This document shows, piece after piece, positions 13,851 through 46,499 of a stretch of 64,000 bases of DNA. The position numbers and the translations under genes were made by a program. The notes beneath the pieces were generated by a model, which worked only from the letters and a program-made list of their open reading frames with translations, was not told where the DNA came from and ran no database searches. Source of the stretch: Perna viridis (lineage: Eukaryota); assembly GCA_037379345.1 (NCBI GenBank), contig CM074524.1, positions 5,677,635 to 5,741,634 on the forward strand. Reading direction: 5' to 3'. Each line of letters begins with the position of its first letter. Within the stretch, counting starts at the first letter, position 1.

Positions 13851-13955
13851 ATTTAAAGGAAGGAAAAGTGTAAAGAATAGTTAAAGGGTTAAAAAGTTCA
13901 TATATCATCACTTAGTTTTACAGCATAAATGTTCAGTCCAAAGACGTCTTTGATA

Positions 13956-13980
13956 TTACTTAATTCTCCTGCAGTATCTA
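13956..13980 (-). pseudogene. Orphan last exon of the small secreted-peptide gene (5'-truncated third copy)
   Basis: tttcttTCAG|TAGATACTGCAGGAGAATTAAGTAA versus GAGATACTGCAGGAGAAGTAAAGTAA at 27215; 1-nt deletion; homology stops near 14085. Confidence 0.75.
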
Positions 13981-16900
13981 CTGAAAGAAATGAAATACAA
14001 ATTTGCTACTTTCAAATATTACCAAATATTTAGCAAATACCCAGATGTACAGATGAGTTTTAGAGAACATGAGTAGTTATTCAGAATTCATGCGCCTGTC
14101 CACAGTCGAGAGAATTTTGTCATGAATGTGTCTTTGAGTGGTTATATTACTTTTTAATTTGATTTTGAAGAATTGTCATCACTCAGTTACTTTGTTGTCG
14201 AGGCCTTCCACAGCTTGCTTAAAGATGTGTTTTCGCGCATTAAAATGCTTTGGTGATGTCAAAAAGTATCTACTATTCTGTATTTAGGTTATACACTGGT
14301 GCATTGGTTACGTTTCACTATATCCGTTCTTTTTTAATGACATAAAATAAAATTCATTGAACTTTAATGTGTTCAATCCCGAGTGCTTGCTTATATTGCA
14401 ATTTTGCTCAATATGGTCTAATTTTATATGTAATTGTTCAGACCGAAATGGCCGTTTAAGACTTCGACAAAAGTAATAGTGTCTCACTCCGGCGCCCCGC
14501 TCATTAACGGTGAAAAAATAATGAGTTAGTTACCTGTTACCTAATAATAACAATGTAATATGAAACAGTGTTATTTAAAGCATTTATGAACCGTCGATGG
14601 TATACCAATCAATGGCTTGACAACTGTATGACGGCGGCATCGTTCATATTGATAAGATTTGTTTTCAATTCATATAGGTTTACGTCGTGTCATACATTGT
14701 GCATTTGCGTGTAGGAATATATACATGTTTGTAAAGAGGCACTAATGGTGAACTGGATCATGACAGCTGTATATTTTCCGTTTTAATCAAATTTCTTTTG
14801 TATAATTGTTTTTGGTTGAACCTACAGTGTAATTGGACCACCATTTATTCTTACATATTATTATTATATATATATATTTTACAGTTTTTCATTGTCAGAA
14901 TTTTTAAATCGGCTGGGTGAAAATTTTTGGGGCCGCACGCTCGTACCCTTTTACCTGTTATGTTACCCTCCCCCCTTTCCGCCGTGCTCCTATGGTGCTC
15001 TTATAGAAACAAAATTACAAGTAGTATTAGTACTACGATTAATAGAGTGGGTATATGTACTTAGTACTACATGTCGAAGAGGCTCGTAATTACTTTGTTA
15101 CTTTCATGGTTTAAGATTCTGTGTACCCTGTCCCTTCCGCTTACAAAATCTGGCTGAATATTTAGAATATTGCAAGAAATTACTTTCGCTGTTCCCTTGT
15201 AGGCTAGTCAACTAGATCTCCTATCGAGGTTTAAATAAAAGTAAAAAAAAATACATCTTCCTTGGTAATCTTGTATTGGTAATTTTGCAGTGGATGACAG
15301 TCCAAGCCAAGCAAGGAACTAAACCAGGAACCTTCCACGAGCGAAACTACTACTGCGCAGATTGGCGACTCGTGTTGATGATACCACAAAAAAATTCTCC
15401 TTTTTTGAATGAGACATTTGAGTGATTTTTTGGATATCCCTATAAAAAATATTTGCTACAATTTTAACAATACCAAATATATGCCCAGTTTTTCTTTGAA
15501 ATATTTATTTCTAATTTAATACAATTATGTATAAAGAATTCCAAAGTTGCTTTTATTCATGATATTGGTAACATATTATTATAATAATTATAAAATACAC
15601 ATTTTAGTACAGTAATAGTGATCATGTTCCTTCTGATCGCCATTCTGTACAATACGTACTTTATGAACATATGCCGGCACTTGTACATACATGGATAACA
15701 TGCCTTGCTATTATAACCTTAAACCCACCGGGACGGGCCAGTGTTTTTCACAAATATGATCGAACACAAACGTGATCGCAGGCTGCAGCTGCAAAAAAAG
15801 TCTGTTTGGCTTTTTCTGCCATACCTTTCATTTATAATACATGTTCTTTCTACATCGGGGTCTTTGAAACTGATGTGGCATTGACACTCATCGACCTACA
15901 TTCGCTGACTTTCATTCGTTTCAAAATTGAAAACATCGCGTAACAAATGCACCAACGTGTAACCAAAATACAGTATAGTAAATACTTGCAGAGATCACCA
16001 AAGAAAAGTCTTCAATAAGTGTAAACACAGCTATAAGTAAGCTTTCGAAGGCCCAAAATCAAAATAATAAAATCCACGGTAACTGAACGACGACAATTCT
16101 TCAAAATCAAAGATTAATATTACCACATAAAGACACATTTATGGTCAACATCTGTTGACTGTGGACAGGCGCACGCGTGAAATCGGCGGTGGGGTTTAAA
16201 TAGTTTTATAAGTATACAAAGTGGAGATTTCCTATCCACTGCTCCAATATTTTCAAAAGAGTGAACAATACAGATGTTTTTAGACGGTAAGGTACGAAGA
16301 CGAAAAAAAAACATATCAATAAAATTCCAACGAGTAACTGATTTCCACATGTTTTCTCCCTCATCTCTAAGTGCTTCAACGTGCCTATGCTTGTCATTGA
16401 AATTTGAGTATCAAATATAACGCCACCACTGGTATCAGATTTTTGTGACAGGAAATCTTTTACTTTGAAAGACTTGATTTTTAAGCCTTAAAGACTTATT
16501 CTTTGAAATGGTAATTAGTTCTTCCACTTAAATATTTTATTTGTGAATCATATATGGTTTCATATATGAAATGTTAAAGCCATGAAAATAATCTTGTTTT
16601 TAGTCAATATGTCTTTTTTTTTTATCTCAGATATAATGATAAATAGGGAATGTAAGCACGCTTCCATGGTTCTCGAAGTCACTGTAGTACTTTTTGTGGT
16701 TGTTGTATGTTTAGCAATTAATTTTCATTATATGGCTTTCAATCTATGCTGCTTTTACAGGCATATATTTAAGAACCAATATATAGATAGTAGCCTAACG
16801 GATAATATGATATTTAACATAATATTATTTTAAAAAATTTAAAAAGTGAGTGTTTACCAAATTAACATTTAGAAACATACGCCAATTTCAGTTTATTGGA

Positions 16901-17129: not shown

Positions 17130-17590
17130 ATGTTGTGCAAATTCGTCTACTTCAGATATATCTCAACATGCTGCACACTTTTAACAAATGTCAGAATTTT
17201 ACTAAGCATGATGGTTTTGGAGATATATGCTAAAAACTGTCTGACCACAACTTTTAGTAACTTGGTCATGTTTTTCGACAAATAGACAATGCCAACATTA
17301 TGTCTATGAAAAATACCCTCGGAATCATTCATAACAAATTTGGTTCAAGTTTATCCAGTAGTAACAGAGAAGTGTATCAAAGTTATAACGTTTAAAATAA
17401 CAAGTAATGTTGAAAAGGGGGAAATAACTACAACATGCCGTTAACAATTTTACACGAAAATATGGCTTCAGATAGATCTCATCATGCTGAACACTTTAAC
17501 CCAGTGTCCAAATTGTGCTTAACTTATGGTTTTGGATGCAAAAAACTTCTGTCTGAGCTCAATTTTTAATAACAGTAGCGATGATTTGAC
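17130..17590. repeat. Degenerate internal repeats of a Helentron/HINE-like element (similar to 35040-35260)
   Basis: Two related units (CTTCAGATA...CATGCTG...ATGGTTTTGGA...TGTCTGA) at ~17150 and ~17465. Confidence 0.55.
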
Positions 17591-17896
17591 GGATTAAAAT
17601 ATGTAGCAATTTCTTGTAAAATATTTAAATTCTGTCGGCAGTTGAAAGTGTAACAGGACACATCTTAAGCTATCTTTATTTTAATATATCGAATGTACAT
17701 ATTGCCCATGAATTTCCAAAAGAGAAAAAAAATTGATTTTGCTTTGACTTGATAAAAACAAAATTACCAACCAATATTTTTCAAATCATTTTTTTTAAGA
17801 AAGAAAAATGTACAGAGTAGGTAAAGGGTTACAAAAGTTTATATATTATTACTGAGCATTAAAACATAGATAGTCAGTCCAAAAACATCTTTTGCG

Positions 17897-17922
17897 TTAC
17901 TTGTCTTCTCCTGTAGTGTCTC
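17897..17922 (-). CDS. Small secreted peptide gene, copy 1, last coding exon: (G)DTTGEDK*
   Basis: Pyrimidine-rich acceptor atctttCAG; phase 1 matches the donor at 18309; exon length and stop position conserved in copy 2. Confidence 0.7.
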
Positions 17923-18309
17923 CTGAAAGATATAAAATGCTTATTTACTATTTTCAATTAAATACCAAATATTTCGAAAATATTCAAACATGCAGTTTGT
18001 TCTTGATCAATATAGTAGTTAATTCAGAATTTCAACTTTACTGTAGGTCAGGATCGATATAACACTGATACTTATTTATCTCTTAATGGATGTTTGACTA
18101 CCTTTATCGTTGCATGTTGTTTTATTTTATCATTATCATAATTATATTTAGTGTCTTTTGAAGAACAAAAATACCAATGATACACTGTTCATTAATAATA
18201 AAAAAAATATGTTAACATAGTTTGAAAAGAAAAGATGTTTACATTTATGTATACAATGTATACGTATAAAATGTAAGAAATATTCATATAATTATATCTA
18301 AGTATTTAC

Positions 18310-18448
18310 CATGCAGACGGCCACGCCGGCTAGGCGGCGTATAAACTAATCGTCCTTGGATAAGTTTTTTTCTGCCATAAGATATTTCTCCATGACATAG
18401 TGCAATTATTGCAAGTAAGATAATCGTGATTATCTTAAAAATCTGCAT
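18310..18448 (-). CDS. Small secreted peptide gene, copy 1, first coding exon: MQIFKIITIILLAIIALCHG-EISYGRKKLIQGRLVYTPPSRRGRLH
   Basis: AAAATG start context, 20-aa signal peptide ending CHG, cationic mature region, G|GTAAAT donor, upstream acceptor tgttttCAG at 18472; frame preserved in the paralogue despite indels. Confidence 0.75.
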
Positions 18449-18685
18449 TTTCTCATTCAATTCTTCAGTCGCTGAAAACATTGAACTTATTCATTTGGTA
18501 ATGTAAAAATTAATTTTATTAGAATACTCAGAAATAGATGTTCTGGTGGTGTAAGATGAACAGAGGAAATGATAGTCTAATATGTTCAACAAATTTCTGT
18601 ATTTATTTGGAACTGCTTTCTTCTCAATAAAACTTATGACTTTAATGATCAATTCTTAAATTAAAGTGATTGAGATTCGATCAAA

Positions 18686-18692
18686 TTTTATA
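18686..18692 (-). promoter_or_regulatory. Putative TATA box of peptide gene copy 1
   Basis: TATAAAA on - strand followed by GAATCTCAATCA; both conserved at 26053 in copy 2. Confidence 0.45.
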
Positions 18693-18849
18693 TAATATAT
18701 TCATAACCATGATAGTTCTATGAGGTAGCATGTATATATAGGATTGTGTTTAACGATGATATGCACGTTAACCGTGAAAATTGAACAAATATTTTCAAAC
18801 CGTTTTCGAAATGTCATCGGGAACATAATTTGAGATCATAACGAATTTT

Positions 18850-19355
18850 AAAGTTCCTACAAATCAATACATTACAATGCGCTTGTAATCTAATATAATT
18901 AATTACCTTTTTTAAATCAGCTTTTTCATCAAGAAATCGCTCCAAGATACATTCGATCGTTGGAACGTTCTTGCTATTTATGGAAAAATGAGAATCTCGG
19001 TCACCTTTACCTACCACGTGACATCTTCCATCGCCTTGACATTCTATGTGATATCATTCATACAAAGATACAAAGGATTCATTTTTTTATTTAAAAATAG
19101 TATCTCTTAACCTTTGAAATTTGATCTGGAAAAGTCGTTCATCTAATAGCTTTCGTATTAAAAATTCCTTCTCAGACGCGATTTGTAAGTATTGTTAACT
19201 ACTTATATGTTCTATATTTAGTCACAAATATGTCATACTTTATTGATATACTGTAGATTCAGAAATTGTTGTGATGTTTCTTTTTATTGAAGAAAAAATG
19301 CTAAAGACACTATTTCACTTTTATCTCAAAACTCGCACAGTTAAAGTTTTGGCGT
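18850..19355 (-). repeat. Upstream segment present three times (also 21110-21830 + and 25140-25800 +)
   Basis: GAATGTCAAGGCGATGGAAG and CTGTGCGAGTTTTGAGATAAAAGTGAAATAGTGTC in all three copies. Confidence 0.9.
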
Positions 19356-20054
19356 AAAACTTCTGTAGTGATGACTTCAACCTTGTAGCAACATGACCCT
19401 GTTCGAAAAGCCTACTTGTTAGATTCTAGCGCGATACAGAAAGTCAAGATAGTTTTAGCAAGCTCTGGCATAACGTATGGGTTGTGATATGAACAATCCA
19501 TACGCTGGTGCTGAAGGGATGTTGCCACAAATAAAAGGAAAGCTGACAATTCTGAATGAAAAATAAACACGTTTTTTCGTAAAGTTTGGTCAATAGTTTC
19601 CCCTTGCCATCGATTTCTAAGTGTATGTCAAGATATGCAGCTGACTTCACAATGTCTGTAGTATCCTTTATCTCAAGTTCTTTTGGGTAGATATGATGTA
19701 TCAAATCCCCGAAATTAGGATTGTTTAAAGATAATACGTCATCTATATATATATATATAGGAAACTGAGATTAAAGGATCTAGCTAAACGATATTGTCTC
19801 TTTCTGATCAGATTTGCTATAAAGTCAGCCCCTGAAGAGTGAACGAATAGGTCAGCATGTAGGGGAGAACAATTTGTACCCATTGGAATGCCGACCGCTT
19901 GTTGAAAAACGCGTCTACCACACTGGACAAATATCTTCTTCCTTATTTTTGGAAGATGATTTGGAATTATTTTTTCAAAGTATGTGGAATCTTTAGAAAG
20001 GCCTATATATTTGTATCTAGGTGTACCATCTTTCTTTGGAAAAACAACGATGTA
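19355..20054 (-). mobile_element. Naiad-like RT fragment, left arm of fold-back
   Basis: YPKELEIKDTTD, YLDIHLEIDGKGKLLTKLY, GIPMGTNC; reverse complement of ~20398-21110. Confidence 0.9.
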
Positions 20055-21110
20055 CTACCACACTCTCCAAAGAAGAGATAGTGGAAAACCATAATTCTGT
20101 GCTATCCTCTTTTGGTCTTTCTCCTAAGGACGATGATTGCTATTTACCGTCTATATACTGGATTCCTAAAGTCCACAAGAATCCATACAAACAACGTTAT
20201 ATAGCTGGATCTTCGAAATGTACCACCAAACCTTTTTTTAAAACTTTTAAATGTAGATCCTGAACAATTTCAAAGAACTTTTGGAGGCAATCTATTCAAA
20301 ACTATTATCAGAATATAATAGCATTAAAACAAATGATTTTTCAACACTGTATACTTCTATTCCCTATACTCAGTTAAAATCCCGACTTTAAAACATAATA
20401 CATCGTTGTTTGTCAAAAAATGTGGTATATCTAGATACATATATATATATGTCTTGCTAAATTTTCTTCATTCTTTGAAAGAAATAACTCCAAATCATCT
20501 TCCAAATACACAGAAGAAGATGTTTACAAAATGCTGGAATTTTTAATCGACAACATATTTGTCCAGTGTGGTTGACGCGTTTTACAACAAACATTCGGCA
20601 TTCCAATGGAAACAAATTGTGATCCACTACTTGATGACCTATTCATTCATTCTTCAGGGGCTGACTTTATAGCTAATCTGATCAGAAAGAAAGAATATTG
20701 TTTAGCTAGATCCTTTATCTCAGTTTCCGCTATATAGATGATGTATTATCTTTAAACAATTGTAATTTTGGGGATTTGATACATCGCCTCTACCCAAAAG
20801 AACTTGTGATAAAGGATACTACAGACACTATCAACTGCTTATCTTGACCTACACATAAAAATCGAAAACTATTGACAATACTTTACCACAAAGGTGATGA
20901 TTTTTCATTCATAATTGTAAACTTTCCTTTCATCTGTGGCAACATCCCTTCAGCACCAGCGTATGGATTGTTCATATCACAACCCATACGTTATGCCAGA
21001 GCTTGCTGAAACTACGTAGACTTTTTGTATCGCGCTAGAATTCTAACAAAAAGGCTTCTCGAAAAGGATTATGTTGCTACAAGATTTAAGTCATCACTAC
21101 AGAAGTTTTA
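20055..21110 (+). mobile_element. Naiad-like RT fragment, spacer plus right arm of fold-back
   Basis: LPSIYWIPKVHKNPYKQRYIAGSSKCTTKP, DFSTLYTSIP, GIPMETNC, FRYIDD; multiple stops and frameshifts. Confidence 0.9.
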
Positions 21111-22559
21111 CGCCAAAACTTTAACTGTGCGAGTTTTGAGATAAAAGTGAAATAGTGTCTTTAGCATTTATTTTTCAATAATAAGAAACATCACAACAAT
21201 TTCTGAATCTACAGTATATCAATAAAGTATAACATTTTTGGGACTAAATATTGAACATTTAAGTAGTTAAAAATACTTTCATACATTCGTCACACTTACG
21301 AATCACGTCTGAAAAGGAATTTTAAATACAGAAGCTATTAAATGAACAACTTTTCCAGGTCAAATTTCAAAGGTTAAGAGATACGATTTTTAAATAAAAA
21401 CTGAATCCTTTGTATCTTTGTATGTATGATATTAGATAGAATGTCAAGGCGATGGAAGGTGTCACATGGTAGGTAAGGGTGACCGAGATTCTCTTTTTTT
21501 CTATAAATAACAAGAAAGTTTCAGCCATTGAATGTATCTTAGAGAGATTTCTTGGTGAAAAGGTTGATTTTAAAAAGGTTGTTAATTATATAAGATTGCA
21601 CGCGTATTGTAGTGTGTTGACTTTTAGATTTAAAGAATAGTTTTCCATTCACATATCATTTGCGTGCAAACTTTTTTTTTTGTGACTGAATGTGTAGTAT
21701 TAGAACAAGACATTTTCATTTAAGGGAAGGAAAATAATAAAATTAGATTTTTTGATAGCTGAACACGAATCACACATTCAACTTGGTTACTTTCGCATGG
21801 CCTCTTAATGAATGAAAATGTGTTGCTTTGCAATGTAAATACTTCAATATAAATAATATATATGTATATTTCTCTTTCCATTGTAAACAAGAGTTTAAGT
21901 AAATGTCTTTTTGTTAATTTTTATCACAGTATTCAAGAGTAAGTGCGCGATTTTATTTTCTTTCAAAATATGAGTATGCTTGCAGCTTACTTTGGTTGTC
22001 ACGGAGGACGAATTCATTTCTGCTTAAAATGCTCAGTTTTGAAACAAAATCATTTTAATATGCATTTTTCCGATTATGAAAAAATACTACATAATTGCTA
22101 CATAATCACGAGAACATACGTAAAAATGGTGAAAAAAGAGCAGTTGAAACCATCACGCGACCAAGGTATACTATTGTTCAAGTGTAATTTTATTTTATAA
22201 AAAAATGTTATTGAAAAAGAACGGATATGGTAAAAGGTAACAAATGCACCAGAGTATAACCTAAATACAGAATAGTAAATATTTTTAGAGATCATCAAAT
22301 GATCTTTAATAAGTGAAAACACATCTTTAAGTAAGCTGTGGAAGGCCTCGACAACAAAATAACTGAATGATGATAATTCTTCAAAATCAAATTAAAAAGT
22401 AATATAACCACACAAAAGCACATTCATAACAAATATCTCCTGACTTTGGACAGGCGCATAAAATCTGTGATGAGGTTTCAATAGTTTTATTTTCTAACTA
22501 AACACAGAGGAGATTTCCTATATACACTCGTCAATTGTTTTCAAAAGAGTGAAAAAAGA

Positions 22560-23820
22560 TAAGCGTCTTTTGTATTTCTAGAACCACCCACTGTGTTGCT
22601 CATAAAAAGTCACATTCTGGGTAGAAGAAGGAAAAAACAAAACTATGACATGGTATGGAAGTCTATTTCTGTCATCGTGATAAATAAATGATGCAAAAAT
22701 TATCTCGAAAAGTCGTGATAATTTGGGTATTTTGTCGACATAAATGACAATTTTATCTAAAAAAGTCACGATAATTTTTCGCAATAATTAAGATAATTAT
22801 GTCGACCGTTCGATATAATTACATGAATTATCGCGACTTTAAGGGAACCGACGACAACTTGTGCCTTTGACATCAAATATTTTCACGATAAATTATGACA
22901 ATTGTACACTAATACAACGACTTTATGAGCTAATTATCATGACAAATCGTGATATATTATCGCAACTGGTCGGAAAGTTATGATGTTTAAGATATCTGTC
23001 GACATTAACTATCGCAATCTGAGAATTTAAAGTTGTGAAAATGCCAAGTAGTGTCAACAACAAAACATGCGAGTTGCGATATATCATGTTGACGTTTTCG
23101 TGAATGAACTTGGCTTATTGACTATATCTCGACAAAAGCTAGTTTTTCGGGGTAAGTTACGAAAACTTATCGTGACTTTTTGAGATGAAATTGTCGTTTA
23201 TGTCGACAAAATACACTAATTATCATGACTTTTCGAGATAATTTTTCGCGACTTTTATTTATCTTGATGACAGAAATAGACTTCCATAACATGGTGAACA
23301 AATCGGTTCTCATTGTGTAGGTGGATACACAGTAACGTCCTCGAGTTTATGATGACGACCATAAAACTTCTGTATTGATGACTTCAATCTTATATCAATC
23401 TAGCCCTTTTCCAGAATTCTTATTGTAAGAAGTGCAGCATGGTACAAAAACTCTGCGTAGTTAAGACAAGCTTTGGCATGACATTTGAGTTGTGATATGA
23501 AAACTCCATACGCTACATGTATAAAATCAGCCTCATGAGAGTGAAGGGATAGATCAGCGAGTATTTGTCACAATGGATGGAAAGCCAAACAAGCGTCCAC
23601 CACACTGGCCAAAAATGTCATTGGTAAACTAATCTAACATTTTGAAAACATCTTTTTCGATATATTGTGAAGATGATTTGAAATCGCTTTTTTTTACAAA
23701 GTATGGGGATTCTCTACCAAGAACGGCATGTGCAAATCTCGTTCTAGGTGTACTAATTTTTTCTTGAGTTATAATGGTGTAGAATGTTTTAAAGTTGGGA
23801 TTTCAACTGAATATAGGGAA
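22560..23820 (-). mobile_element. Decayed Naiad-like copy, inverted counterpart of 12305-13070, interrupted by a MITE
   Basis: Same internal deletion junction and the same downstream flanking repeat as the 12.3-kb copy. Confidence 0.85.
22654..23288. mobile_element. 635-bp non-autonomous DNA transposon with ~130-bp TIRs and 6-bp TSD (IS3EU-like termini)
   Basis: Ends TATGGAAGTCTATTTCTGTCATC...GATGACAGAAATAGACTTCCATA; ACATGG duplicated at 22648-22653 and 23289-23294; empty site visible in the paralogous copy near 12970. Confidence 0.9.
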
Positions 23821-24544
23821 CAGATATGTTCAGTTTGTTAAATTTAAATATCCTTTTGGATAAACTTAGATGAAGTTAAAATTGTACAACTACAACATAA
23901 AAAGAAAAAAATTCCTATTTTGCCCGTTTTCCAGTATTCTTTAGCTTTTTTTCCCTTATGCTAATACAGGCTGCTATGCTACTTATTATGTTGTCATTTT
24001 CTTTTACCTTCATGGCTAGTGTGTGACCTCAAGAACATCTGAAACACTAGCAGTGTCTTTGGACCACATGTTATATCTAACGGAGCAATCCGTAATAGAA
24101 AGAACTGGTAAAGACACCATAATTGTTATAGTGCATATCCACAATTTATGTGAAACATGTAATTCATATCTTCCAGAAGCAGATTGCCAATTCATATCTA
24201 ATTTTGTAGACGAAATTTAATGACCTATTGATCATCGCTTAAAATTGGTATAAATTTCCCAGGCAACCTTTTTGTTGTTTTTTTACAACATGAACGTTTA
24301 ATCATATAATCTGTATATTGGACAATACGCATGCGGGAAATATTTTTCACAAGATTTTAACAAATAAAAATAATAACAGGTTTCAAATGAAGTTCACATT
24401 AATTGAGACGTTTCGTGATTTTTACATGAACATTTTATAGGAAGTGTCTGTTAAGGAGGTTGACCAACGGTAATGGATATAACTCTTGAAATCAGTACTA
24501 TGTTTCTATTGTATTTAATTTCACAAAAGTCTATCAAGCTTTTA

Positions 24545-25085
24545 TTTGAAACAGAATGAAATCAGTCTATGTTACTATGATGCTCCCATGATATTGATGT
24601 AAAATGCAGAATACAAACGTTCCAATGATTTGTAAGAGTTGAGTCCCTTACCCTTCTTCTACCACCTTAAATGGAATAACAGGAAAGAATTTCCAACATA
24701 TACTAGTTTGATCAAACCTGAAATTTACTTTCTCTACTGTTGCATTAATTTTACACTAAGTAGAATTGAAACCGTGATGTAAATTGCGATTCTTTTTAAT
24801 GTTAGTTAAAAAGTATCATTGGAATGAAATATTGAATTTTTTTTTTTGAAATCAGTCCAAGTAACTTTGATACTTACATGAGATTAATGTAAAATGCTAA
24901 TTACAAACGTTCTAATGATTTGTAAGAGTTGTATCCCCTACCCTTCGTCTAACACCTGACATGAAATAACCTCACAGGATGTTCGACAAATATAAATTTG
25001 ATCAAATCCAAAATTTACTTTCTATACTCTTACATTAATTTTACACTAAGTTTTTTTTTTCAAACTGTGATGTAAATAGAGATTC
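24545..25085. repeat. Diverged tandem duplication, period ~290 bp
   Basis: GAAATCAGTC...TACAAACGTTC.AATGATTTGTAAGAGTTG...CATTAATTTTACACTAAGT at ~24558 and ~24848. Confidence 0.85.
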
Positions 25086-26052
25086 AGGTCAATGTTAGGT
25101 CAGAAAATATCATGTGCAAATAAAAAAACGGCTTTAGTAACGCCAAAAGTTTACCTGTGCGAGTTTTGAGATAAAAGTGAAATAGTGTCTTTAGAATTTG
25201 TTTTTCAATAATAAGAAACATCGTGACAATTTCTTAATCTACATATGTCAATGAAATATAAGATTTAGGTGACTAAATATAGAATACTTTTAGATACGGC
25301 ATGCTCTCAGATTGCGTTTGAGAGAATATTTTGAATACAAAAGCAAGTAGTTGAAAGACTTTTCCAGATCAAATTTCAAAGGTTAAGGGATATGATTTTT
25401 AAATAACAAAATGAATCCTTTGTACGTTTGTATTAATGATATCAAATAGAATGTCAAGGCGATGGAAGATGTCATGTGGTAGGTAAAGTTGGCCGAGATT
25501 CTTATTTTTTACATAATAAACAACAAAATTCTAGCTATCGAATGTATGTTAGAGAAATTTCTTGGTGAAAAGGCTAATTTAAAAAAAGTAATTAGTTATA
25601 TTAGATTACACGTGTATTGTAATGTGTTGACTGTTTAATTGTAAGAATAGTTTTTTCATTCACTATTTTTGTTTGTAACAAAAAACATCTAAGGGAAGGA
25701 AAATAATAAAATTTGATTTTTTTTCTAGCTGAACACGAATCACACATTAAACTTGGTTTCTTTTTCATGGCCTCTAAATGAATGAACATGTGTTGATTTG
25801 ATGTCTAATGTACACATGTTAATTCACCAAAATATCTCTGGTAAGCTATAGTCATGTTTAATGGTTAAAATATACACATTATATTAACGAATATTTTGTG
25901 TTGGTGGTCATACTTGCAGGAACCTTAACATATTTAAATATGACATTTTGCAAACGGTTTTAAAATATTTGAAGTTCAATTTTCGAGGTTAACTTGCACA
26001 ATCCTATATACACTTGCTACCTCATTGAAGTATCAGGGTTATGAATGTATTA

Positions 26053-26059
26053 TATAAAA
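26053..26059 (+). promoter_or_regulatory. Putative TATA box of peptide gene copy 2
   Basis: TATAAAA positionally conserved with copy 1. Confidence 0.45.
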
Positions 26060-26296
26060 TGTGACCGAATCTCAATCATATTAAGACATGAATGTTAAAG
26101 TCATAGGTTTCCTTGAGAAGGAAGCAGTTCCAGAGAAATATTGAAAGGTGTTGAACATGTCAGACTATTTATCATGTCCTCTGTTCATCTAACACCATCA
26201 GTAAATCTGTGTTGTTGAATATTCCAGTTATGTTTATTTTTACATTACCAAATAAATAAATTCAATGTTTTCAGCGACTGAGAATTGATTAAGAAA

Positions 26297-26426
26297 ATGC
26301 CGATTTTCAAGGTATTCACGATTATCGTACTTGTAATAATTGCACTATGTCACGGAGAAATATCTTATGGCAAAACAAAACGTATCCGAGGACGATTAGA
26401 TATACCGCCATCTGGCCGTCTGCGTG
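26297..26426 (+). CDS. Small secreted peptide gene, copy 2, first coding exon: MPIFKVFTIIVLVIIALCHG-EISYGKTKRIRGRLDIPPSGRLR
   Basis: Inverted paralogue of 18310-18448, absent from the ORF track (<60 aa). The corresponding donor reads GGAAAT instead of GTAAAT; unspliced read-through ends GKYLDTNI* at 26452. Confidence 0.7.
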
Positions 26427-27214
26427 GGAAATACTTAGATACAAATATATGAATATTTCTTACTTTTTATAAGTATACATTGTATACATAAATGTAAATA
26501 TCTTTTCTTTTTGATTTCATATTGTCAGTTTTTGTATTGCTTTTGTTAAATGGCTAATTCTTTCACTTCAATTAGGATAAGACAATACCGTATAAATAAA
26601 CACAGTCCAGTAAAAAATACAGGACGATGGTGTATATAAACAATAACACGAGAATGAAAATATAACTAACATTGAACTGATTATAAATCGAAAACACCCG
26701 AAATAATAACAGACGGTACACCAATATTAGGAGACTGCAACTTGTCTACATTTTGTTAAGCTTGTTTAAAGAATACAATTTGTATTATCTTTAAATCAAA
26801 AACAGCACTTCTATAGTTCATTCACGAAAAAAACTAAGTGTTAAACTAGGCAGGCATTCGCGTAATACGGAACATAACCGTTTTTAGTTTGTTATATTTC
26901 AAACTATGCTAACATGTTTTCTATGGTTACAGAACAGTGTCTCTTCGGTATTTTTTTCTTCAAAAGACACCAATTATAATTATGATAACGATGCAGTAAA
27001 ACACAAAAAACAACTTAAAAACAAACAGCCAGCCATAAACAGATAAATTAGATATAATTGAAATGGTTTTAGTTTTGATATCTATCCTGACCTTCATTAA
27101 AGTTGTAATTCTGAATAACTTCTCAGGTTCTCCAAAAATCATCTGAACTTCCGGATATTTGCTAAATATTTGGTATTATTTGAAAATAGCAAATCTGTAT
27201 TTCATTTCTTTCAG

Positions 27215-27240
27215 GAGATACTGCAGGAGAAGTAAAGTAA
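27215..27240 (+). CDS. Small secreted peptide gene, copy 2, last exon: DTAGEVK*
   Basis: tttcatttctttCAG acceptor; 26-nt exon homologous to 17897-17922. Confidence 0.6.
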
Positions 27241-28095
27241 TACCAAAGATGCTTTTGGACTGAATATTTATGTTGTAATACTGAGTGATGTGAAATAAAC
27301 TTTTTTAAGCCCTTACCTAATCTTTACACTTTCCCTTCCTTTAAATTTGTTTTGTATGTATTTACAGTTACTTTATGTTCTTGTTATGATTGTCTGTTTC
27401 CCATGTCTATTTATTGTCCCTGGATTACATTGTTTTGATTTCTACTAGAATCTTGGTTCCCTTTATTACTCTTTTAAATACATGTACACGCCTTTATAAT
27501 TGATGGTAATGTTTCAATATTGTGTTACGACATGCCGCGCAGAATTATAAGTATCAGAATCTATCAATTCACAATTGGCAGGGACATTTAGCTACTGTTG
27601 AAATCGATCGATAATAATTGTAAAAGAAGCCTAATAGTAGTTTTATTTTGTAAAAATGGCCTCCCTTGAATACACAAGTTAAGTTAGATACATCGTAATT
27701 CTTTAAATTGACTTAATGTTTCACGAGAAAAAATTGAGAAAAGTGATTGAAATCACAAAAAGGCATTTAGCTGTTTTTATCTGAAGAAATCATTGATTAT
27801 TTCAATATGGATGCAAATATTTAATAATTATGATACTTCTCCAAAATTGTAATTAACATCTTTTGCATTTATATATTGCTTCATTTCAGAATTAATCTAG
27901 AGAGTCTGATATCTGTTTCAGCAGCGTCGTTTCTATGAAATTCACTACGCTAATTGTCCAAAGGGCTTCCCAACTATACCTACCGGGGTAGATATTTAGA
28001 ATAAATAAAGGGGGATTAAAACAAAAAAATACAAAACCAAAATAATAAAACTATATAATAAATAAAAGTGCAAGGAAGTACTACGTTTATTAGTG

Positions 28096-28233
28096 GGGAA
28101 TGTCGTCCAGACTAACAGCGAATATGGTGTGCTAGAAAATACCAATGAATAGTGGCACGATGTAGGGAATGTCGTTCAGACTACCAGCGAATATGGTGTG
28201 CTAGAAAATACCAATGAATAGTGGCACGATGTA
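28096..28233. repeat. 2 x 69-bp near-perfect tandem duplication
   Basis: GGGAATGTCGT.CAGACTA.CAGCGAATATGGTGTGCTAGAAAATACCAATGAATAGTGGCACGATGTA at 28096 and 28165. Confidence 0.95.
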
Positions 28234-28329
28234 TTGAAACTTTATCAATGCCTGGCTATAATTGTTGATACACATTAGTGATTTCTCCAGAAGTATCCGT
28301 TGGGGATCTAGTGAAACGGTTGTCAGAAC

Positions 28330-28530
28330 TCTTCGTTTTCACCATCCATGTAGAGGTTACTGGGTTGTGATATGAAAACTTCTTAAGTAAGTGCTGAAGG
28401 GATGTTGCCACAGTAGTAAAGGAAATTTGACAATACGGAATGAACATTCATTGCGTTTGACGTAAACATTGGTCAAAATCTTTCCTTTCCCATCAAACTC
28501 TAAGTGAAAAATCAATACATGAAGCTGATT
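28330..28530 (-). mobile_element. Old Naiad-like RT fragment
   Basis: TGAAGGGATGTTGCCACAG and GTTGTGATATGAA shared with the copy at 4640-4800. Confidence 0.7.
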
Positions 28531-29669
28531 TATTTAATCTTGGAATATTTTCTTTTGATTTCCGCTCTACATGTTACCTAAGGTACACCATTCCTATTGA
28601 ACTGAGCATTCTTTCCTGTCATCCTGCGAGATGATACAGACACATTTATATTCAATGAACCAATAATGTTTAACACGATGTAAAAATATTTTAAAAGACG
28701 TTTTGACATTAAAACTCATGATAAAATACATGCATTAATTGTATAAGGCCTCTGCTAAGGGGAAATAATAAGCAGGAAAATGTTTGCAAAAAATCTAATG
28801 GGAATTTCAAGGTTTTATTTTAATATTACAAGAAAAAATTCAGTGACTTGCAGTTTTCGTTTTGAAAAAAGAATGTTAGTTAAATGTTCTTTATATAAAT
28901 ATAGAAAAAATTATATTTATTTAACTTGCTGTTAACCGAATTCAGTCAATCATAAATGGAATACATTGGAACAACATAACAAGTTTAGTTTTTGAATAAC
29001 AAGAAATCTGGTTATTAGTTTCCTTGACTAAACAATCTCCCTTATTGCTTACACTATACTCGGCGTCACATAAATAACATACTGTTAAAATTTGAATTTA
29101 AAAGCTGCTTCATATTAGAGATAATCGGATAACTAACTTAAAGAGCTGACGAAATGTGAAAAGTAATAAAAATACATTCGAGTTATCTGTCGTTTCACAG
29201 TCAAGTCCTGAAATAGACAAGTTCTTCTTGACGCAACAATTCCCAAATTAACATTTGATTTATTCCCCTTTCGTTAGTTTCTTCTTATAAGTTAGTTTGC
29301 AGATTTCGAGTACATTGCAAAACACACGAATGATACATGATTCGCATGCAATGGTAGGGTCCAACTTCGGTGAATGATTAAAAGGGATAAATCTTGAATG
29401 AATTTGATTTTTCTCAGAAATCTGTTAACGGGGAACAGCTTTTTAGAAGGGGGAGGGATAATTAAAAAGAAACACCAACTACTTAGGCTTGTATACTGCC
29501 CCAATTTCTATTTACATTCCAACACAACCTCACGAATGATATGCAGTAGTTAGGTTTGGGATTAAATTTAAAAGAATATTTGGTTTTCATTTTCAGAAAA
29601 GCAATGTACTGTTAGTTGATGCAGTAAATTAGGACAATTACTGCAAACATACTTGCGATGAGAAAAAGA

Positions 29670-30210
29670 AGACTGATGGACTGACTGATGGACACATAAA
29701 AAATGTTCATACCCCAATAACAAATCCTTAACTTTGTTACCTCGGGTATATTTCTGAATAATGTTACAAAGTCCAACTACCACCCAGTTTCGTAATATTC
29801 CACAAAAAGCAAGATCTTATGACCTTGCACACCATCATTATGTGTAGAAACATCCTGCAAAAATATTTTAGATGTAGTTCAGAAACTACCGGAGGACATA
29901 GCCTGAAAAGCCATATAGTCCTATTTCTACTGAACATGACTATAAATCTAACTATCACCAATTTCGGTAATATTTCATAAAATAAAAGTTCTGTGACCTT
30001 GCACGCCTTTGTCATGTGTAGAAATATTCTGCAAAATATTTTAGATGTGGTTCCAAACTGTATGAGGAGATAGCCAGACAAACCATGATCCATATATTTC
30101 TGAGTAAAATGACTAAGTGTATTAACTATCACCAATTTCCGTAATATTTCACGAAAATCAAAATGATTTGGGCCTGGAAAACTTCATCATGTGTAGAAAT
30201 ATTCTGTATT
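29670..30210. repeat. HINE/Helentron-like remnant with ~175-bp tandem units and (GACT/GATG) microsatellite
   Basis: AACTA.CACC.A.TTTC.GTAATATT at ~29776, ~29950 and ~30124; ATGTGTAGAAA repeated. Confidence 0.65.
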
Positions 30211-33200
30211 TTGTATTTAAGCGATTGTAGAAATTCATTAATAATGGTAAAATTTGGGATCACCTTTGTATAGGCTATATACTAGTATGGCTGCGTATTT
30301 GATAGTATTTTGGAGCAGGTATCGTCCCTGTGCTTCAACCATAAGAATTATGTACATGAAGATAGTCTGAAAGACAACTATTTGTATTGCAAATTATATT
30401 CTGTAGGTCCAGACCGATATTCATATTCAGCATATTGATGAATATGCTGTTTACAAAGGGAAATATTTTTAACCGGAAAAAAATGAATATGTCACCAGTA
30501 CAATAGTTTTTTTCCGCATCTTCACAAAACATGTAAATACGATTAAAATAATAAATCACTAAGGATTATCTATAGATATTCAGCTGAAAACTACATTAAA
30601 ACCCCTAATATATCGCAAAAAAGGACAACCTTGTGAAAAAAGTAAACGAACAGCATAATCGGAATCGAAATGCAAGTTTTCTAGTACTGTGTATATAGTG
30701 TATTGTGATACATCTTGTCAGTCTAACTTGTATTTACATTTACTTAAATGTTTTGTCAGCTGTACACTTTGTTAAAATAAGTTAAGACTTGCAAATAAAC
30801 TGGAATTCCATTAAAAACTATTAAACCAATATTTTCATGATCATTCTAATAATTAAGAATACGTTAAACAAATGACGGGTCCAGATTTTTACACAAAAGA
30901 AGATACTTTCTCTGGGCCGAAAATACGCATAGAATTCAGGTTTGCTATTCAACGCTGAGCAACATGTTGTTTATTTTTTTAAAACTTAAAGTATTCCTTA
31001 TTTGAGATAATGGAGATAACCGTAATTTAAAATACTAACTCTTTTGAATGGTTTTCGTTGGGTAAGAACGTTAGGTACGTTTGTTAATTATCCAATTATA
31101 TCTATTATGATTTTTACCTGACCTAATTATTTACAAATGTTAATCAAAAATGTTTAAAACGGAAAAAGTAACAAAAACGAGAAACAAGAAAGTATTGTTA
31201 GAAAATCAATAGCGTGCACAACATTTGGGATTTGGGAAATGTTTTCGTAAGGTGTGATCCGAAAAAAATCACCTCGTTGACTACTAGTTTGGATAATGAT
31301 TTTTTTATCCGACCTTTTCATGAAATTTGCACACCATGATTCAATAAATCATAATAAACGCAGTAGATAAATAGGATTTGGAAATAAGTTATCAGATGCA
31401 GTTAACAGAAGGAAATATATAAATTGTCTAAAAACAGTCAGTGTACAAGCTCAGAGAAAATGTAAACAGTTAAAAAGTCTTTAGTATTAAAACTTTTCCT
31501 GATTCAGATTAAACAATAAATGTTAAAAGTACTGTATATGTTTTATAGATTCAAACGGTTGATTAGGTCTAAACGCTGGGTGTTTAATTTTGAATTCGCC
31601 GTAAGTTATGTAAACGTCTGTAATAAATCGCCTTTAGTGCTGATAAATTTTGTTTCAAAAAATGCACAGTATAAGAAGACAAAAATAGTCCACCTTACTG
31701 AAAGAATATCAATAAGAGTTTTCAACCGTTCATACTACCAAATACTAGTTTATTACTATACATTTGCAAATGTTCTTTGACTTCTGTACTATTTTCGTGA
31801 TTAGAGGAAAAAGACGGGGAATATATACGGCTAAGATCTATAGCCCGGGCCTACCTTGATTAGTCCAAACTAGATATCTGTGCCATAATTCCACAAGGGC
31901 TGGTGTATCAAAATAAGATGGTATAATGTATGTGGAAAAACAAGATCTGATCATCAATACTTTTTCTGATGTGACTTTTTACCCCGTGAGTATTCCATCT
32001 GGTTGGTTTATGGATGTTCGTGCAAATGGACCAATTTTAATTATTGGAGAGCTATTTCACAAAGGCACTGTTAAATGCAGTTTATTCGGAAATACATAAT
32101 AACATTTTACACAAAGACCTGGAAATATTATAATTGCCAGGTACTTTGCCAACCAGAAATTTTGAGAATTGTAATTTTCGAATGAATTGGAATGATGTTT
32201 GATTAAAAGATATATAGGTATCATACCAGTGTATCATGAGATTTATTTGGACAAAAAAAATAAAAATAAAAAATAAATAATAATAATAATAATGTGACAG
32301 TGAAGCGGTCAAAGATACGAATGTTGGTCATAAGAAATCAATTGCTTTTTCATTTGATGAAATTAAATAGATCGGTCACTACTTTTTTTTTAATTAATGA
32401 CTTCATCTTTCTCATATCTCCACATATATAATTGATTTGAGTTTCATAACACATTTTTGAGTAAATAGAATAGATACAACCGCTTTCAAAGTCATAATAT
32501 TAAATATTTGAATTAGTTCGATGCTAGTTTCACTGTGACACATACATATATATATTTAGCTCTTGTGTATTATTAACTTCTTGTTTACACCATGAACCAT
32601 CCACATTACTCATTGCCCCCATGCCCGTTTCCCTATTGATTTCTCCGTAGCGTTTATCTGTATATTAGCACATTAATCACTATAGAATGCGAAGTTTTCC
32701 CCAACACAAGATCTTTATGTCATATTAAGTAAACTGAAGAAAATTATTAAACATAGTCAATAGGTTTAATACATAGTTTGTCGATATGGAAAATATATTT
32801 TAATGCTCTACATGCTTACATGATGGCAGAAATTGAAACGTTAACACGGTTAAAACATTTGACAATATTTTACTTTCGATTAAATAGAATATACACGATT
32901 ACTTCCACTGAATTATTTATCAAGTCTATAATTATACGTAAAATGCAGATGTGACATTCAGCAAAGTAAATTGAGCAGAATTTCCAAATCTAAAATAAAG
33001 AACACCATCTTGCAATCCTGGTATGGAATATTTCGATCATACTTGCAAGATATGGAAGATGTTCACACTCCACGCTGATTGTGACTCCTGAATCTAGCAC
33101 ATATATATCGTTAAAGCATATACTTAGAGCGGACAGTTTTATGTCCGAGTCTGTAGCGAAAACAAGCAAGAAACAAACAAAAGAAAAAAAAGCAAAACAG

Positions 33201-34952
33201 CTTTAGCAGCAATGTCACACCCTCCTGGATGTATAACCAGGTAAAATCATTTGCAGACAGAAGTTTTGCACGCTTATCCTACCGTGCACTTGGTCCATGC
33301 TTCCAGTTTCTAGCGAATTCCGATTTTTTTTATTCATTTAATACTGTACTGATACACAGGTTTTATCGCATTTTCTTATTTACTTATAAAGTTAAAGTTT
33401 AAACAAAATGATTGAGAGTAGTTCACTTAACACATAAATACTTTCATTATTTCCTGATAGTAAAATGTTGATTTTATAATGGCTATTTTGTTAAACAAAA
33501 AGATTATTAAGATTTACTCTTATAATTAAATCACCTTGTCGGAACAAGTTTTGTTTTATTCTAAATTCAATCTTCATTCAATTTCGAATTTTATACATAA
33601 TATATCATAATGGGTTATGAGATTGCACTCCTGGTGTTATTTACCTGTTATAAAAATGAGCTTATTCTTAATGTATTGGTAAAATTTCATTTAACATAAA
33701 GCAATTGAGAAAACTATTGTACAGTTAAAAGAAAATATTAAATCTTTAAATTACAGAAATTAAAAATACAAATTTTATAAGTGCATTAAATCTCTAATAT
33801 GATCACTCTTTCTCGTCTGCATTACACCTTATGAACGTTCCTTATCTACCTATGTACATGTAGCACAGCTAGTATTGGAAGGGTGAGAAACAAGTTCTGC
33901 AGAAGCATGTATTATCCGGACAACTTTATTTTAACGGATTAGATAAAACGTGGCTAATAAAGACTGATACGTATTATGCAACATGAGTATCTGGCAGTGA
34001 TCTATGATTCGCTGAAGTGAAGCCATATCTATCAAAGATAACAACGCTTTCTGATAAATGGTTCCTTTTACCCTTCGTTTTGTATCATAATTTTTTTTTA
34101 ATTTCGCTGAAGTCATTCAGAGGGGTCTGGGCCTTCTGATAAAAGGTTGTTTATACATTTCGTTCCGTGTAAAATAAACCATTCAATGAATCTCTTAAGT
34201 GAAGCCATGTTACACTTTAACCAGTCAAAAAACAATTCACCATATATAGCAGATCCGAGGAAATAAACATATGAAGAATTGTTTTAGGACGAAACACATT
34301 CATTGATTATCTTGAGATATGATGAATCACACCTGCTTGGTTTTTAGAAAGACAGTACTTAACTTTAGTGTTAAATGTACAATTTTTATCTGGTAAATCT
34401 ATACCTAATGTGTCTCTTTCAATTCGGAACGAAGCAACATTTATCCTCCTTTTAAAAACCAACATACAATATTATTGTGAAAGAGATAAATTTAGCATAT
34501 CAAAATTAAGTTTGCAGACAATAGAGCTACATGCAAAAATGTTCATCAGTTTTTGATATTTCTTATTCTGTGGTGATTTAAAAATAAATGTAAAAGCACT
34601 TGAATGAATTACAAAATTATGATTAAGAGTATAAAAATATGATGAAATTCACAAATCAATCAGATCTCGAATAATCGACATTTCGAAAATGTGCTTATAC
34701 ATATTGAATCATTCATAATAAACGAACAATTTCAATCATTTTCCACCTGAACAAAACACAAAACACTCCATAAAATTACTGATACAGTTTTATTAAAAAT
34801 AAGATGACTACCCGTGGGTAAAAAATGCTGTTCTCGCAGCTTTAAAACAACTTAGTTCTTGATGAACAAGACAGAGCCGGACAATTTTAAAACAGTAACA
34901 TTGTAGGAAACAATAGAATCGCCTGTCTTGATAATTATTTTATGCAAAATAC

Positions 34953-35302
34953 ACTAGAGACTCTAAAGAGCCACAATCGCTCACCGCGCTCGTTAAACAA
35001 CAAAGAGGGCAATAACTCCAACAATTAAACATGAAAATGTAACTGCAGAAATATCTCACCAAGCTGATCAATTTTACTCAGATTTAGGCTAAACTTAATG
35101 GTTTTGGAGATATATGCAAACATCTTCTGTCTGACCCGATGTATACTTTTGGTAACAACTGCCATGTTTTTCAACGGATCAAAAATCCCCAATCCGTTCT
35201 AAGCAGAACACTGTAAGGAATATCAATACCAAGTTTGGACCAAATGGTTTTCAAATACATATGCAGAACCTCTTTATTAAATTTTTGGGCCAGGTGAGCT
35301 AA
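34953..35302 (+). mobile_element. Helentron-associated non-autonomous element (HINE-like)
   Basis: Subterminal inverted motifs GCTCACC (34978) and GGTGAGC (35293) enclosing a decayed satellite-like core, a layout typical of bivalve HINEs. Confidence 0.65.
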
Positions 35303-36049
35303 TGCCTTTTAACAAAACAAAACAAAATAAGAACAATCGAAAGTAAAGAGAAAAAGGCAACATCCAACAACGAAAAAAAATAAAATTGGCCCCTGTGAAA
35401 TATGTCTGGCTTCTGCAGCTTCTCAAGCCTTGCTGAGGAGTAGGGGCAATGGATGTTAAAGAATGAAATTGTAGTTTGATTATTACCGAACTCGGGCTAT
35501 TTCTTTTTATACGAGCATTTCAGATCGTATCTGTATCATAACGTAACGAAAACAGTACTTCCCAAGGCAATATTTTTAAATGATATGTAACGTTTGTATG
35601 TTTTAAGACTTTGTGGATTTAAAAGCCGAGATAAACCTGCGATGGGAATTAATTCATGTATATTCAAATATATAATTCCCCACAGATTGTTTTAAATGTT
35701 TGATATAAAATTACAAATCAATCAACTTACGTAGTCTTCCCTGTTAGACTGGGATACAATTTAACATAGGACCATATGGATACCTCGAAAGGGGGGTTTC
35801 TTTTATATGAAATCGTACTATATTATATAATTAGGGCGGAATTCTATTCCAGAAATTGCGGGATACCTTTTCCTTGTAATTGTGTAAATATTTACCTTTG
35901 ACTAGCTTTAATAAGACCAATTACATTGCATTCAAATTATTAACTTAGATGCATGGAAAACATTTTGGTAAATATTGCTTTATCATTGTGCTGAATATTA
36001 TATACCAGTCTGTAGTCAGTGATATATGTTGATTTGAGGATGAATTGGT

Positions 36050-36880
36050 TATGTATTCTTAGTACTCACTCAATTAATCACCTAGAGAAGGTTTTCAGTC
36101 TTCTTCAGTTGTAACGAATGTAATTGAATCTCTATCAACATACATAACTCTCTGATACAATATCTCTAGATAGCTATGATGTGTTAACCTAGCTTGCTCG
36201 GTAGTATAGGCAGCCAATACGACGCTGGTTCATCCTGATATTTCAACTAATTTAGTTTGTTTTCCATCTAATTTCCACAACTTCGTCAAATACGAAATTG
36301 GCTTCTTGCTAAACACTTGTTAGGATATCAAAATATAGTGCTAGGTTTGATACATATTAAATTTTCGGTAATTTGAGCACTATCCAAATTTAGCATTAAA
36401 TTTGCCAATGATCGAAGCCTATGATTTTTCTCTCAATTTTGTCACATTCTAATTGGATTCCTTCTTTCTCAAAGTAGTCATCGATATATTTTTGTCTATC
36501 ATCCTCAGTTCCGACCCAAGAAGAAACGTGTTGATGTATTCACTGAAAATACCACCAGATTGGAACCTGGTGTCGTACTTTGCAATTTTGTTAAAGTGCC
36601 ATACTTCATAAGTCTTGTTTACAATATACTTTTGGCAATGGGATTTTAACTTCATCGGTAACTCAAGTATCCGTGATCTCTCTGTCGTCTTCTGAATGTA
36701 AGCATGTACTATGTTGGGGAGTCTAAGCGCATGCCCTACATATTAAGAGGCATTTTCAAAGTTTTCAACAATCACTCTTTGATGTCCTAATACTGCTTTA
36801 CCCGTTTTGATTATATAGGTGTATAAAGATATAACATCGTAATAATTGATGCTTTCATTCCCTTTAGCTTCATGAAAGAG
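36050..36880 (-). pseudogene. Polinton/Maverick protein-primed DNA polymerase B, C-terminal part (decayed)
   Basis: HEAKGNESINYYDVISLY (DxxSLYP motif), YEVWHF, GGIFSEYINTFL, VVLAAYTTEQARL, VMYVDRDSI (YxDTDS motif). Confidence 0.85.
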
Positions 36881-36960
36881 AAATCAAGGGAACCAAGGTT
36901 AAAGCGGTACGTTGTAATCAAAAGAATGTAATCCTGGTGCAATAACCTGACATGGAAAAG
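36876..36960 (-). mobile_element. Naiad-like 3' tip forming the left edge of the insertion in pPolB
   Basis: AAGAGAAATCAAGGGAACCAAGGTTAAAGCGG. Confidence 0.8.
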
Positions 36961-45100: not shown

Positions 45101-45120
45101 GCACAGTAACAACAGAAAGA

Positions 45121-46438: not shown

Positions 46439-46499
46439 ATATCCAAAGAGGAGAATGCAGAGATTGGCGAATAAAAGTTTTCAAATAGCTGCAGAATAT

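Follow-up and report, generated by a model that had tools for sequence, protein, structure and literature searches.

Does a 54-codon open reading frame (ORF) in the genome of the mussel Perna viridis belong to a real gene and, if so, is its product a new antimicrobial peptide (AMP)? The question was raised by a preliminary description of a 64,000-nucleotide stretch of DNA (the window, C14:5677635-5741634, whose numbering is used below unless a contig, C3, C4, C6 or C14, is named), in which a micro-gene for a secreted, Cys-free cationic peptide with an acidic tail had been proposed from the letters alone.

Transcription and splicing of the micro-gene

The coding part of the gene was recovered exactly as proposed. 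Joining 18448-18310 (139 nt, donor G/GTAAAT) to 17922-17897 (26 nt, acceptor TTTCAG/GA) gives 54 codons and a stop, and residues 21-46 contain 5 Arg, 2 Lys and 1 Glu (net +6), as had been stated. The unspliced frame extends 8 residues into intron 2. The features of the locus and of its relatives in the window are collected in Table 1.

Table 1. Coordinates of the gene and of related copies in the window
Feature	Position	Strand	Basis and remarks
TATA-like element CATAAATA	18975..18982	-	about 75 nt upstream of exon-1 donor
Exon 1, non-coding	18907..18932	-	joint 18471/18907 in X21 (2 reads, 2 starts) and X8 (1 contig); donor GTAATT; 3' end exact, 5' end at or beyond 18932, likely around 18950
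Intron 1, 435 nt, GT-AG	18472..18906	-	RNA joint; contains TATAAAA 18692-18686
Exon 2	18310..18471	-	23 nt 5' UTR, ATG 18448, signal peptide, cationic core, first base of codon 47
Signal peptide and conserved polar c-region, residues 1-25	18374..18448	-	hydrophobic stretch, family alignment, model helix
Hypervariable Arg/Lys/Pro/Gly core, residues 26-46, net +7, no Cys	18311..18373	-	alignment; low-confidence model region
Intron 2, 387 nt, phase 1, GT-AG	17923..18309	-	joint in 4/4 runs examined
Exon 3, coding part	17897..17922	-	8-residue tail (net -2) and stop; ORF and RNA joint
3' UTR	17500..17896	-	contigs reach 17761 in X8, past 17500 in X1 and X7; 3' limit approximate
Second window copy	25482..27240	+	exon-1 region; exon 2 26275-26426 (ATG 26297); exon 3 from 27215
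Degenerate copy	21473..21876	+	exon-1 region kept, exon 2 gone, intron-2 start remnant
Orphan exon-3 copy	13873..14039	-	acceptor 13980; no upstream exon 2 found

RNA evidence was taken from 4 of 24 indexed runs, which carry no tissue labels, by alignment to positions 17500-19100 at 90% likeness; run X21 is declared as RNA-Seq, and the kind of X1, X7 and X8 was guessed. The joint 18310/17922, on which the proposed peptide depends, was present in each of these runs, carried by 3 reads from 2 starts in X21 and by contigs of depth 8758, 14.8 and 6.3 in X1, X7 and X8, respectively. The acceptor placed 23 nt 5' of the ATG is also used: in two of the four runs, X21 (2 reads) and X8, position 18471 is joined to 18907, which provides the non-coding first exon that had been predicted. 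In X8, a single 350-nt contig spans all three exons with 0 differing letters, the core included, so that the window locus itself is the source of the RNA, and in X7 a 69-nt contig matches the core and continues into exon 3 of the same locus. In X21 every first mate maps to the plus strand, which fits a minus-strand RNA in most stranded libraries. Furthermore, no intronless copy was found in a search of the genome (723 Mb, 46 contigs) and the joints are thus not derived from a retrocopy, as far as this search sees. The 54-codon micro-gene is real and expressed; the junction in 4/4 runs, the three-exon X8 contig without mismatch and six frame-conserved paralogues place its ORF beyond chance.

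Word depth, a rough measure in which paralogue reads are included, was about 23,000-40,000 over exon 2 in X1 as against about 4-4.5 in intron 2, and reached 39,000 over exon 2 in X7 as against 0-2.5 in intron 2. Among the 10.35 million records of X21, 18 reads were assigned to the gene, and 8 of these resembled paralogues. Expression is very uneven: some samples clearly contain much of the transcript, another very little. Loose ends of the RNA in three of the four runs match the short copy at C3:17033916, and X1 contains an in-frame core variant, read by hand, which is present in none of the seven assembled copies described below.

Run X8 is filed under another species label, although its spliced contig (17761-18932) is identical to the window gene. 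A mislabel or carry-over is likelier than conservation and, because of this identity, the contig was excluded from any statement on cross-species conservation.

The 5' region

The TATAAAA at 18692-18686 had been described as conserved and as implying, together with the acceptor, a non-coding first exon. As exon 1 defined by RNA ends at 18907, this motif is located inside intron 1 (18906-18472); only four of the six aligned copies retain it, and X1 depth is flat (67-75) across the site, so it was rejected as a promoter. Judged by sequence, CATAAATA at 18982 is likely to be the core promoter, and the canonical TATAAATA occupies the matching place in three other copies. The spliced 5' UTR carries short upstream ORFs, with one out-of-frame ATG, in weak context, 8 nt before the main ATG. 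A simple pattern search of the minus strand within 17400-19400 gave no canonical kappa-B or CRE motif. An GTGACCGA..TCTC-like element immediately precedes the TATA-like site (19000-19015, minus strand) in most copies, and in most copies it recurs after the intronic TATAAAA (18670-18690, minus strand).

Predicted processing of the precursor

After residue 18, the focal peptide contains no Cys. An AlphaFold model of the exon-2 peptide shows a helix over residues 1-20 (pLDDT about 90) and low confidence beyond residue 30; with a pTM of 0.35 and one helix followed by low-confidence coil, it was too poor for a fold search.

The start of the mature peptide at residue 21, as first suggested, is uncertain, and the family alignment favours a predicted cleavage after Gly25. 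In the other subgroups of the family, the small residues of a -3/-1 pair fall at positions 22 and 24, behind a Gly20 that hardly varies; carried over to the focal peptide, this suggests a cut after Gly25. The five closest copies also keep residues 21-25 unchanged. A cut after Gly20 fits the rule as well, and must serve the short C3 copy, in which the 21-25 stretch is missing.

The acidic tail had been regarded as an anionic propeptide, with a possible His-amide at the end of the mature peptide. Among the seven close copies, the tails comprise 6-8 residues with charges of -2, +1, -1, -1, -1, -2 and -3, and none is preceded by a basic cleavage site; in the focal peptide, the Gly is followed by Asp and not by Lys or Arg. 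There is therefore no signal for removal of a propeptide or for His-amidation, and neither proposal was retained. The likeliest product is predicted to be residues 26-54, with a net charge of +5.

Close paralogues and the variable core

Seven exon-2 copies have a common layout: two in the window (18448 and 26297), three on C14 (7054969, 7142210 and 7160694) and two on C3 (17027913 and 17033916). Their predicted precursors are 42-54 residues long and intron 2 is in phase 1 in all seven, by RNA for the focal gene and by prediction for the others. The copy at 26297 is probably damaged, judging from its intron-2 donor, GG instead of GT; the C3:17027913 copy has AT as its exon-1 donor, and more fragments of the family were found at C14:7163.7-7162.4 kb. 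Insertions and deletions among the close paralogues preserve the frame (3, 9, 12 or 30 nt).

The focal gene and C14:7142210, the pair with the closest flanks, differ by 2 substitutions in the 75 positions of residues 1-25. Their cores differ at 15/48 positions versus 15/335 in the flanks (Fisher p 1.4e-7), and all 10 changed core codons alter the residue. A second pair gave 7/39 in the core versus 12/374 in the flanks (p 8e-4), and two other pairs were without significant core excess (p 0.05 and 0.13). These comparisons cover 4 of 10 aligned pairs, the flank sets differed between them, and since the pairs are related and the boundaries were drawn after alignment, the results describe a variable core and are not a formal test of selection. 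The most divergent core block may have arisen by replacement rather than by point changes.

A superfamily of at least 48 loci

What the preliminary description had missed is the size of the family, which comprises at least 48 related loci on four contigs, the gene among them. Single-protein searches gave weak links (whole-genome E 2-7) from the focal gene to a cluster at C6:14.10-14.38 Mb and, from this cluster, onward to C14:5.02-5.24 Mb, C14:22.88-22.91 Mb and C4:31.88-31.92 Mb. A 23-member profile then gave 49 ORF matches (48 loci) at E<=0.1 among 31,436 ORFs in 683 kb of selected DNA, and no match among 31,735 ORFs of the reversed DNA; 23 of the 48 loci had themselves built the profile, and about 0.1% of the genome was scanned. 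The regions C4:31.87-31.93 Mb and C14:22.87-22.92 Mb were covered as 3-kb loci only, and the counts there are lower bounds.

The links between subgroups were examined by leaving groups out. A profile of the focal subgroup placed 12/12 C6 sequences, 2/2 C14 Pro-Pro sequences and 1/7 Gly/Arg-rich sequences above the best control score; conversely, a Gly/Arg-rich or a C6 profile recovered 6/7 focal sequences above the best control, and the two-sequence Pro-Pro profile recovered 0/7. At the DNA level, a profile of the focal subgroup reached C6 at E 1.4e-5. The links rest mostly on the signal region. They are supported by this DNA match and by the placing of the splice sites in most copies, with the acceptor 2-23 nt ahead of the ATG and the donor 103-158 nt past it. 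On this comparison of sequences, a common origin of all four subgroups is likely. At least 11 of the 48 loci have lost the ATG or carry an early stop or a frameshift, as read from the profile matches. Among the aligned cores of the other subgroups, 15/16 are net positive and 14/16 are Cys-free.

The C6 cluster (L068-L087) contains about 27 loci in tandem, in repeating blocks of roughly 40 kb; most of its members have Arg-Arg followed by a conserved block, and in several the ORF ends within exon 2. The Gly/Arg/Phe-rich loci (L104, L105, L107, L128, L129, L135 and L139) are found at C14:5.06-5.17 Mb, C14:22.88-22.91 Mb and C4:31.88-31.92 Mb. They have 4-8 Gly in 24-28 residues, a net charge of 0 to +6 and a Cys at the likely cleavage site. 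Exon-3 tails at the homologous acceptor were found for 7/7 Gly/Arg-rich, 1/2 Pro-Pro and 7/15 C6 copies, and are predicted to be 0-6 residues long and mostly basic. In the Gly/Arg-rich subgroup, predicted phase-2 splicing gives short basic tails, of which 4/7 end in Gly before the stop, making amidation possible; an adjacent frame of the same exon would encode an acidic stretch and is perhaps the older frame.

Searches for named relatives

No named relative of the focal peptide was returned by protein, profile, Pfam or ESM Atlas searches, in libraries that may hold no mussel AMPs. A protein word search with the exon-2 peptide gave no candidate. Word searches with the 23-member alignment, at longer and near lengths, gave one match each, and these were unnamed, unspliced gene calls corresponding to the genome's own copies. 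Against 1.84 billion representatives, the profile gave six matches, none of them a named relative: three were gene calls of the family itself, and three unrelated repetitive proteins were dismissed as noise. The best ESM Atlas scores, 0.76 and 0.75, fell below the threshold for a lead. Pfam, run on 17 members, assigned no family to the focal exon-2 peptide, and 8 weak membrane or signal matches on other members were dismissed.

Five family motifs were absent from the open-access literature searched, and the family is undescribed there, most subscription journals being outside this scope. Six motifs were absent from the 4/4 shell-proteome tables that print sequences in the accessible material of PMC6641155, and from 11 byssus-proteome supplements accessible with PMC6508894, which may not print sequences. 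Such proteome tables are weak negatives, as tiny Arg-rich peptides are readily lost in tryptic proteomics.

Comparison with known peptide families

The nearest parallel is offered by the myticalins and modiocalins, likewise from mytilids. In the accessible text of PMC5577615, their genes have three exons, a non-coding exon 1 and an ATG near the start of exon 2, as does the focal gene, and a phase-1 intron 2, which RNA establishes for the latter. The myticalins combine a conserved signal with a hypervariable core and frequent pseudogenes (available parts of PMC5577615 and PMC12294457). The conserved signal, the hypervariable Cys-free core with more than 10% Arg (5 Arg in focal residues 26-46), the tandem paralogues and the pseudogenes are all common to both sides. 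However, the Lys-Arg or Arg-Arg site that precedes the tail in these families, encoded in exon 2, occurs in 0/7 Perna copies, and the anionic extension, 35-91 residues in the same sources, is replaced by a tail of 6-8 residues with a charge of -3 to +1. In contrast to myticalins, the Perna family has no amidation signal, its precursors comprise 42-57 residues, and it occupies at least 48 loci on four contigs, as compared with the few myticalin genes in one cluster that the sources available to us describe. No myticalin was among the profile and word-search matches, in libraries possibly without myticalins, and the consensus was compared by eye only. Because the dibasic site and the long anionic extension are missing, the gene was not filed as a myticalin.

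Could the family nevertheless represent the missing Perna relatives of myticalins and modiocalins, which would have lost the dibasic site and most of the extension? This question of origin is separate from that of function, and we regard such a descent as doubtful. The exon layout and the intron phase would agree with it, as would, by eye, the signal end A-L-C plus seven residues to Gly, which equals the published consensus spacing (accessible text of PMC5577615). The modiocalins already have shorter extensions according to the same text, and the mature myticalins C and D end in acidic residues (accessible text of PMC12294457). Against this descent stand the lack of the dibasic site and the short tail, an intron position that cannot be matched and the predicted phase 2 of the Gly/Arg-rich subgroup. 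Signal peptides are alike by composition anyway, and a published HMM search found no myticalin in P. viridis, as far as the available text of PMC5577615 reports.

Other families are more distant. Mytilins, myticins, defensins and CRP-I share a signal peptide, a cationic mature region and multigene variability with the focal peptide, which has neither their array of 6-8 or more Cys nor a long anionic extension. The molluscidins of oyster, abalone and pen shell are similarly short, linear, cationic and Cys-free but, compared by their descriptions in the available parts of PMC5577615 and PMC12294457, they have no signal peptide and consist of dibasic repeats, whereas the focal peptide has an N-terminal signal and no repeat array. 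CgPrp, equally short, linear, cationic and Cys-free, differs by its partial description as a Pro/Arg-rich haemocyte peptide of oyster, and no match of its type was among those returned by the database searches for the family. The view that the peptide is neither a myticalin nor a molluscidin is thus borne out by the published defining features of both, and the evidence supports an unnamed gene for a secreted-type, Cys-free cationic peptide with a myticalin-like exon layout.

In the same genome, six of the nine mytilin-like PF10690 matches were located at C6:3.63-3.69 Mb (L095-L100). The best PF10690 match encodes a peptide identical to 'Pvir mytilin 4' (Table 1 of PMC7168163, available in part), and the DNA is accordingly that of a green mussel, either Perna viridis or a very near relative.

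Other features of the window

A 4-kb tandem array (37956-41930; periods 157/233/390, 88% matches) has frames giving Cys-containing, EGF-like-looking repeats with frequent stops and no Pfam match, and is probably a non-coding satellite. Decayed fragments at 43700-47500, which include an integrase core (PF00665, at an E of 4.5e-6 that does not reach the curated cut-off), presumably represent a Maverick/Polinton-type remnant. Broken retroelement fragments of the reverse-transcriptase/endonuclease type lie at 4441-5127, 19444-20263 and 42948-43315, one of them directly upstream of the gene; Pfam gave no match for the two of the three that were searched, and we take them to be Penelope-like. At 60006-60251 (minus strand), an 81-residue open frame without Pfam match encodes a hydrophobic segment followed by a Cys-rich stretch, and may be an exon of a small protein, either membrane-bound or secreted.

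Function of the peptide

By analogy, we lean towards the view, keeping the central idea of the preliminary description as a hypothesis, that the genes encode a linear host-defence (antimicrobial-type) peptide family of Perna, which would work like the myticalins from a stripped-down precursor. This reading takes into account the observed minus-strand transcription, the three-exon splicing with an intact 54-codon ORF, the uneven depth, a layout shared with paralogues and broken copies among 48 loci, the conserved signal beside a variable core, the cationic Cys-free cores and the parallels with myticalins. Several observations weigh against it. The searches gave no sequence link to a known AMP, and the hydrophobic fraction of the core is low (0.17-0.33). 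Two paralogues, one of them expressed, fall to net +1 if the tail is retained, and one Gly-rich member has a net charge of 0. Two of the four pairs lack a significant core excess, and an out-of-frame ATG lies upstream. Myticalins stay below 2% of EF1-alpha in gill (accessible text of PMC5577615), as opposed to the very abundant focal gene in some runs. Finally, rapid evolution is also seen in secreted peptides with roles in adhesion, mucus and reproduction.

The mechanism would be as follows, every step after splicing being one that we infer. The signal peptide would route the product to the secretory pathway and be cut off after Gly25 (or Gly20). The released peptide of 29-34 residues would keep its short tail, with a net charge of about +4 to +5, and be largely unfolded in water. 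Its Arg/Lys cluster would bind anionic microbial surfaces, and the peptide could permeabilise or enter bacteria at a mucosal surface, as the accessible text of PMC12294457 reports for myticalins. Gene birth, gene death and divergence of the core would provide a changing repertoire of peptides.

A broader version of this host-defence reading is a serious possibility, though we stop short of calling it probable: green mussels would have an as yet undescribed superfamily with around 50 or more genes for linear antimicrobial peptides, which arose apart from the myticalins or has moved far away from them, and which would carry at least four core chemistries (Arg/Pro; Arg/Gly/Phe-rich; R-R-M-S type; weakly cationic Pro-Pro) on one signal-peptide scaffold, with no anionic pro-region. 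If so, the linear AMPs reported as missing from Perna would have been found, and bivalves would have their first glycine-rich AMPs, since the available text of PMC12294457 gives myticalins as the only known linear AMPs of Mytilus and glycine-rich peptides as not known in bivalves.

As a rival reading, the peptide would be a minor cationic constituent of a material that the mussel secretes, such as mucus, the coating of the byssus, the periostracum or the shell matrix, and would bind anionic polymers or surfaces as the short variable foot proteins of mussels do. Mussel foot protein 3, for example, is short, secreted, foot-specific and rich in Arg and Gly as well as in Tyr/DOPA, and exists in many variants with multigene variability. 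The secreted-type, short, basic and low-complexity peptide resembles such proteins, and its very high depth in some runs with near absence in another is in line with this reading. In the P. viridis foot, 22 of 81 highly expressed genes are unannotated (accessible part of PMC7971044, whose foot-gene table is without sequences). The richness in Tyr is nevertheless not shared: beyond residue 20 there are two Tyr in the focal peptide and at most one in each paralogue (0-2 after the signal across the 7 copies), which leaves little room for DOPA chemistry. Together with the absence, a weak negative, of the six motifs from the shell tables and byssus supplements, this makes a structural role of this kind unlikely.

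We give still less credit to a role in signalling or reproduction, in which a proprotein convertase would free a pheromone, gamete-coat or paracrine peptide by cutting at a basic site just after the signal peptide. Such a site, R/K-T-K-R after the c-region, is present in 4/6 close paralogues, Arg-Arg precedes the conserved block in most C6 copies, a G-x-L-H motif is common to two subgroups, and reproductive proteins evolve fast. However, the focal gene, which is the abundantly spliced copy, has R-K-K-L instead. No conserved amidated C-terminal motif was seen, and Pfam gave no hormone match beyond one signal-peptide match at E 0.22. Neuropeptide precursors are usually few and conserved, unlike these approximately 48 copies, many of them broken.

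Roles other than these have a very small chance of being correct. It is even harder to believe in a transcribed non-functional or non-coding repeat family with an incidental ORF: the gene is known from DNA and RNA alone, it has short upstream ORFs and at least 11/48 loci are disrupted, but frame-keeping indels, a signal region conserved across four contigs and efficient splicing speak against it.

Significance

The micro-gene is one visible member of a large family of cationic, Cys-free peptides of secreted type in Perna that is as yet undescribed in the literature searched. Such short two-exon ORFs probably fall below annotation cut-offs, hence the lack of a name. A large expressed family with precursors of 42-57 residues would imply a sizeable repertoire of secreted peptides in a farmed and invasive mussel, unnamed in the libraries searched. 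If its members proved to be mucus, adhesive or reproductive peptides instead of antimicrobial ones, the family would still be undescribed. As the peptides are short enough for synthesis, their function is directly testable, and they could serve as markers of mussel immunity or as starting points for antibiotics.
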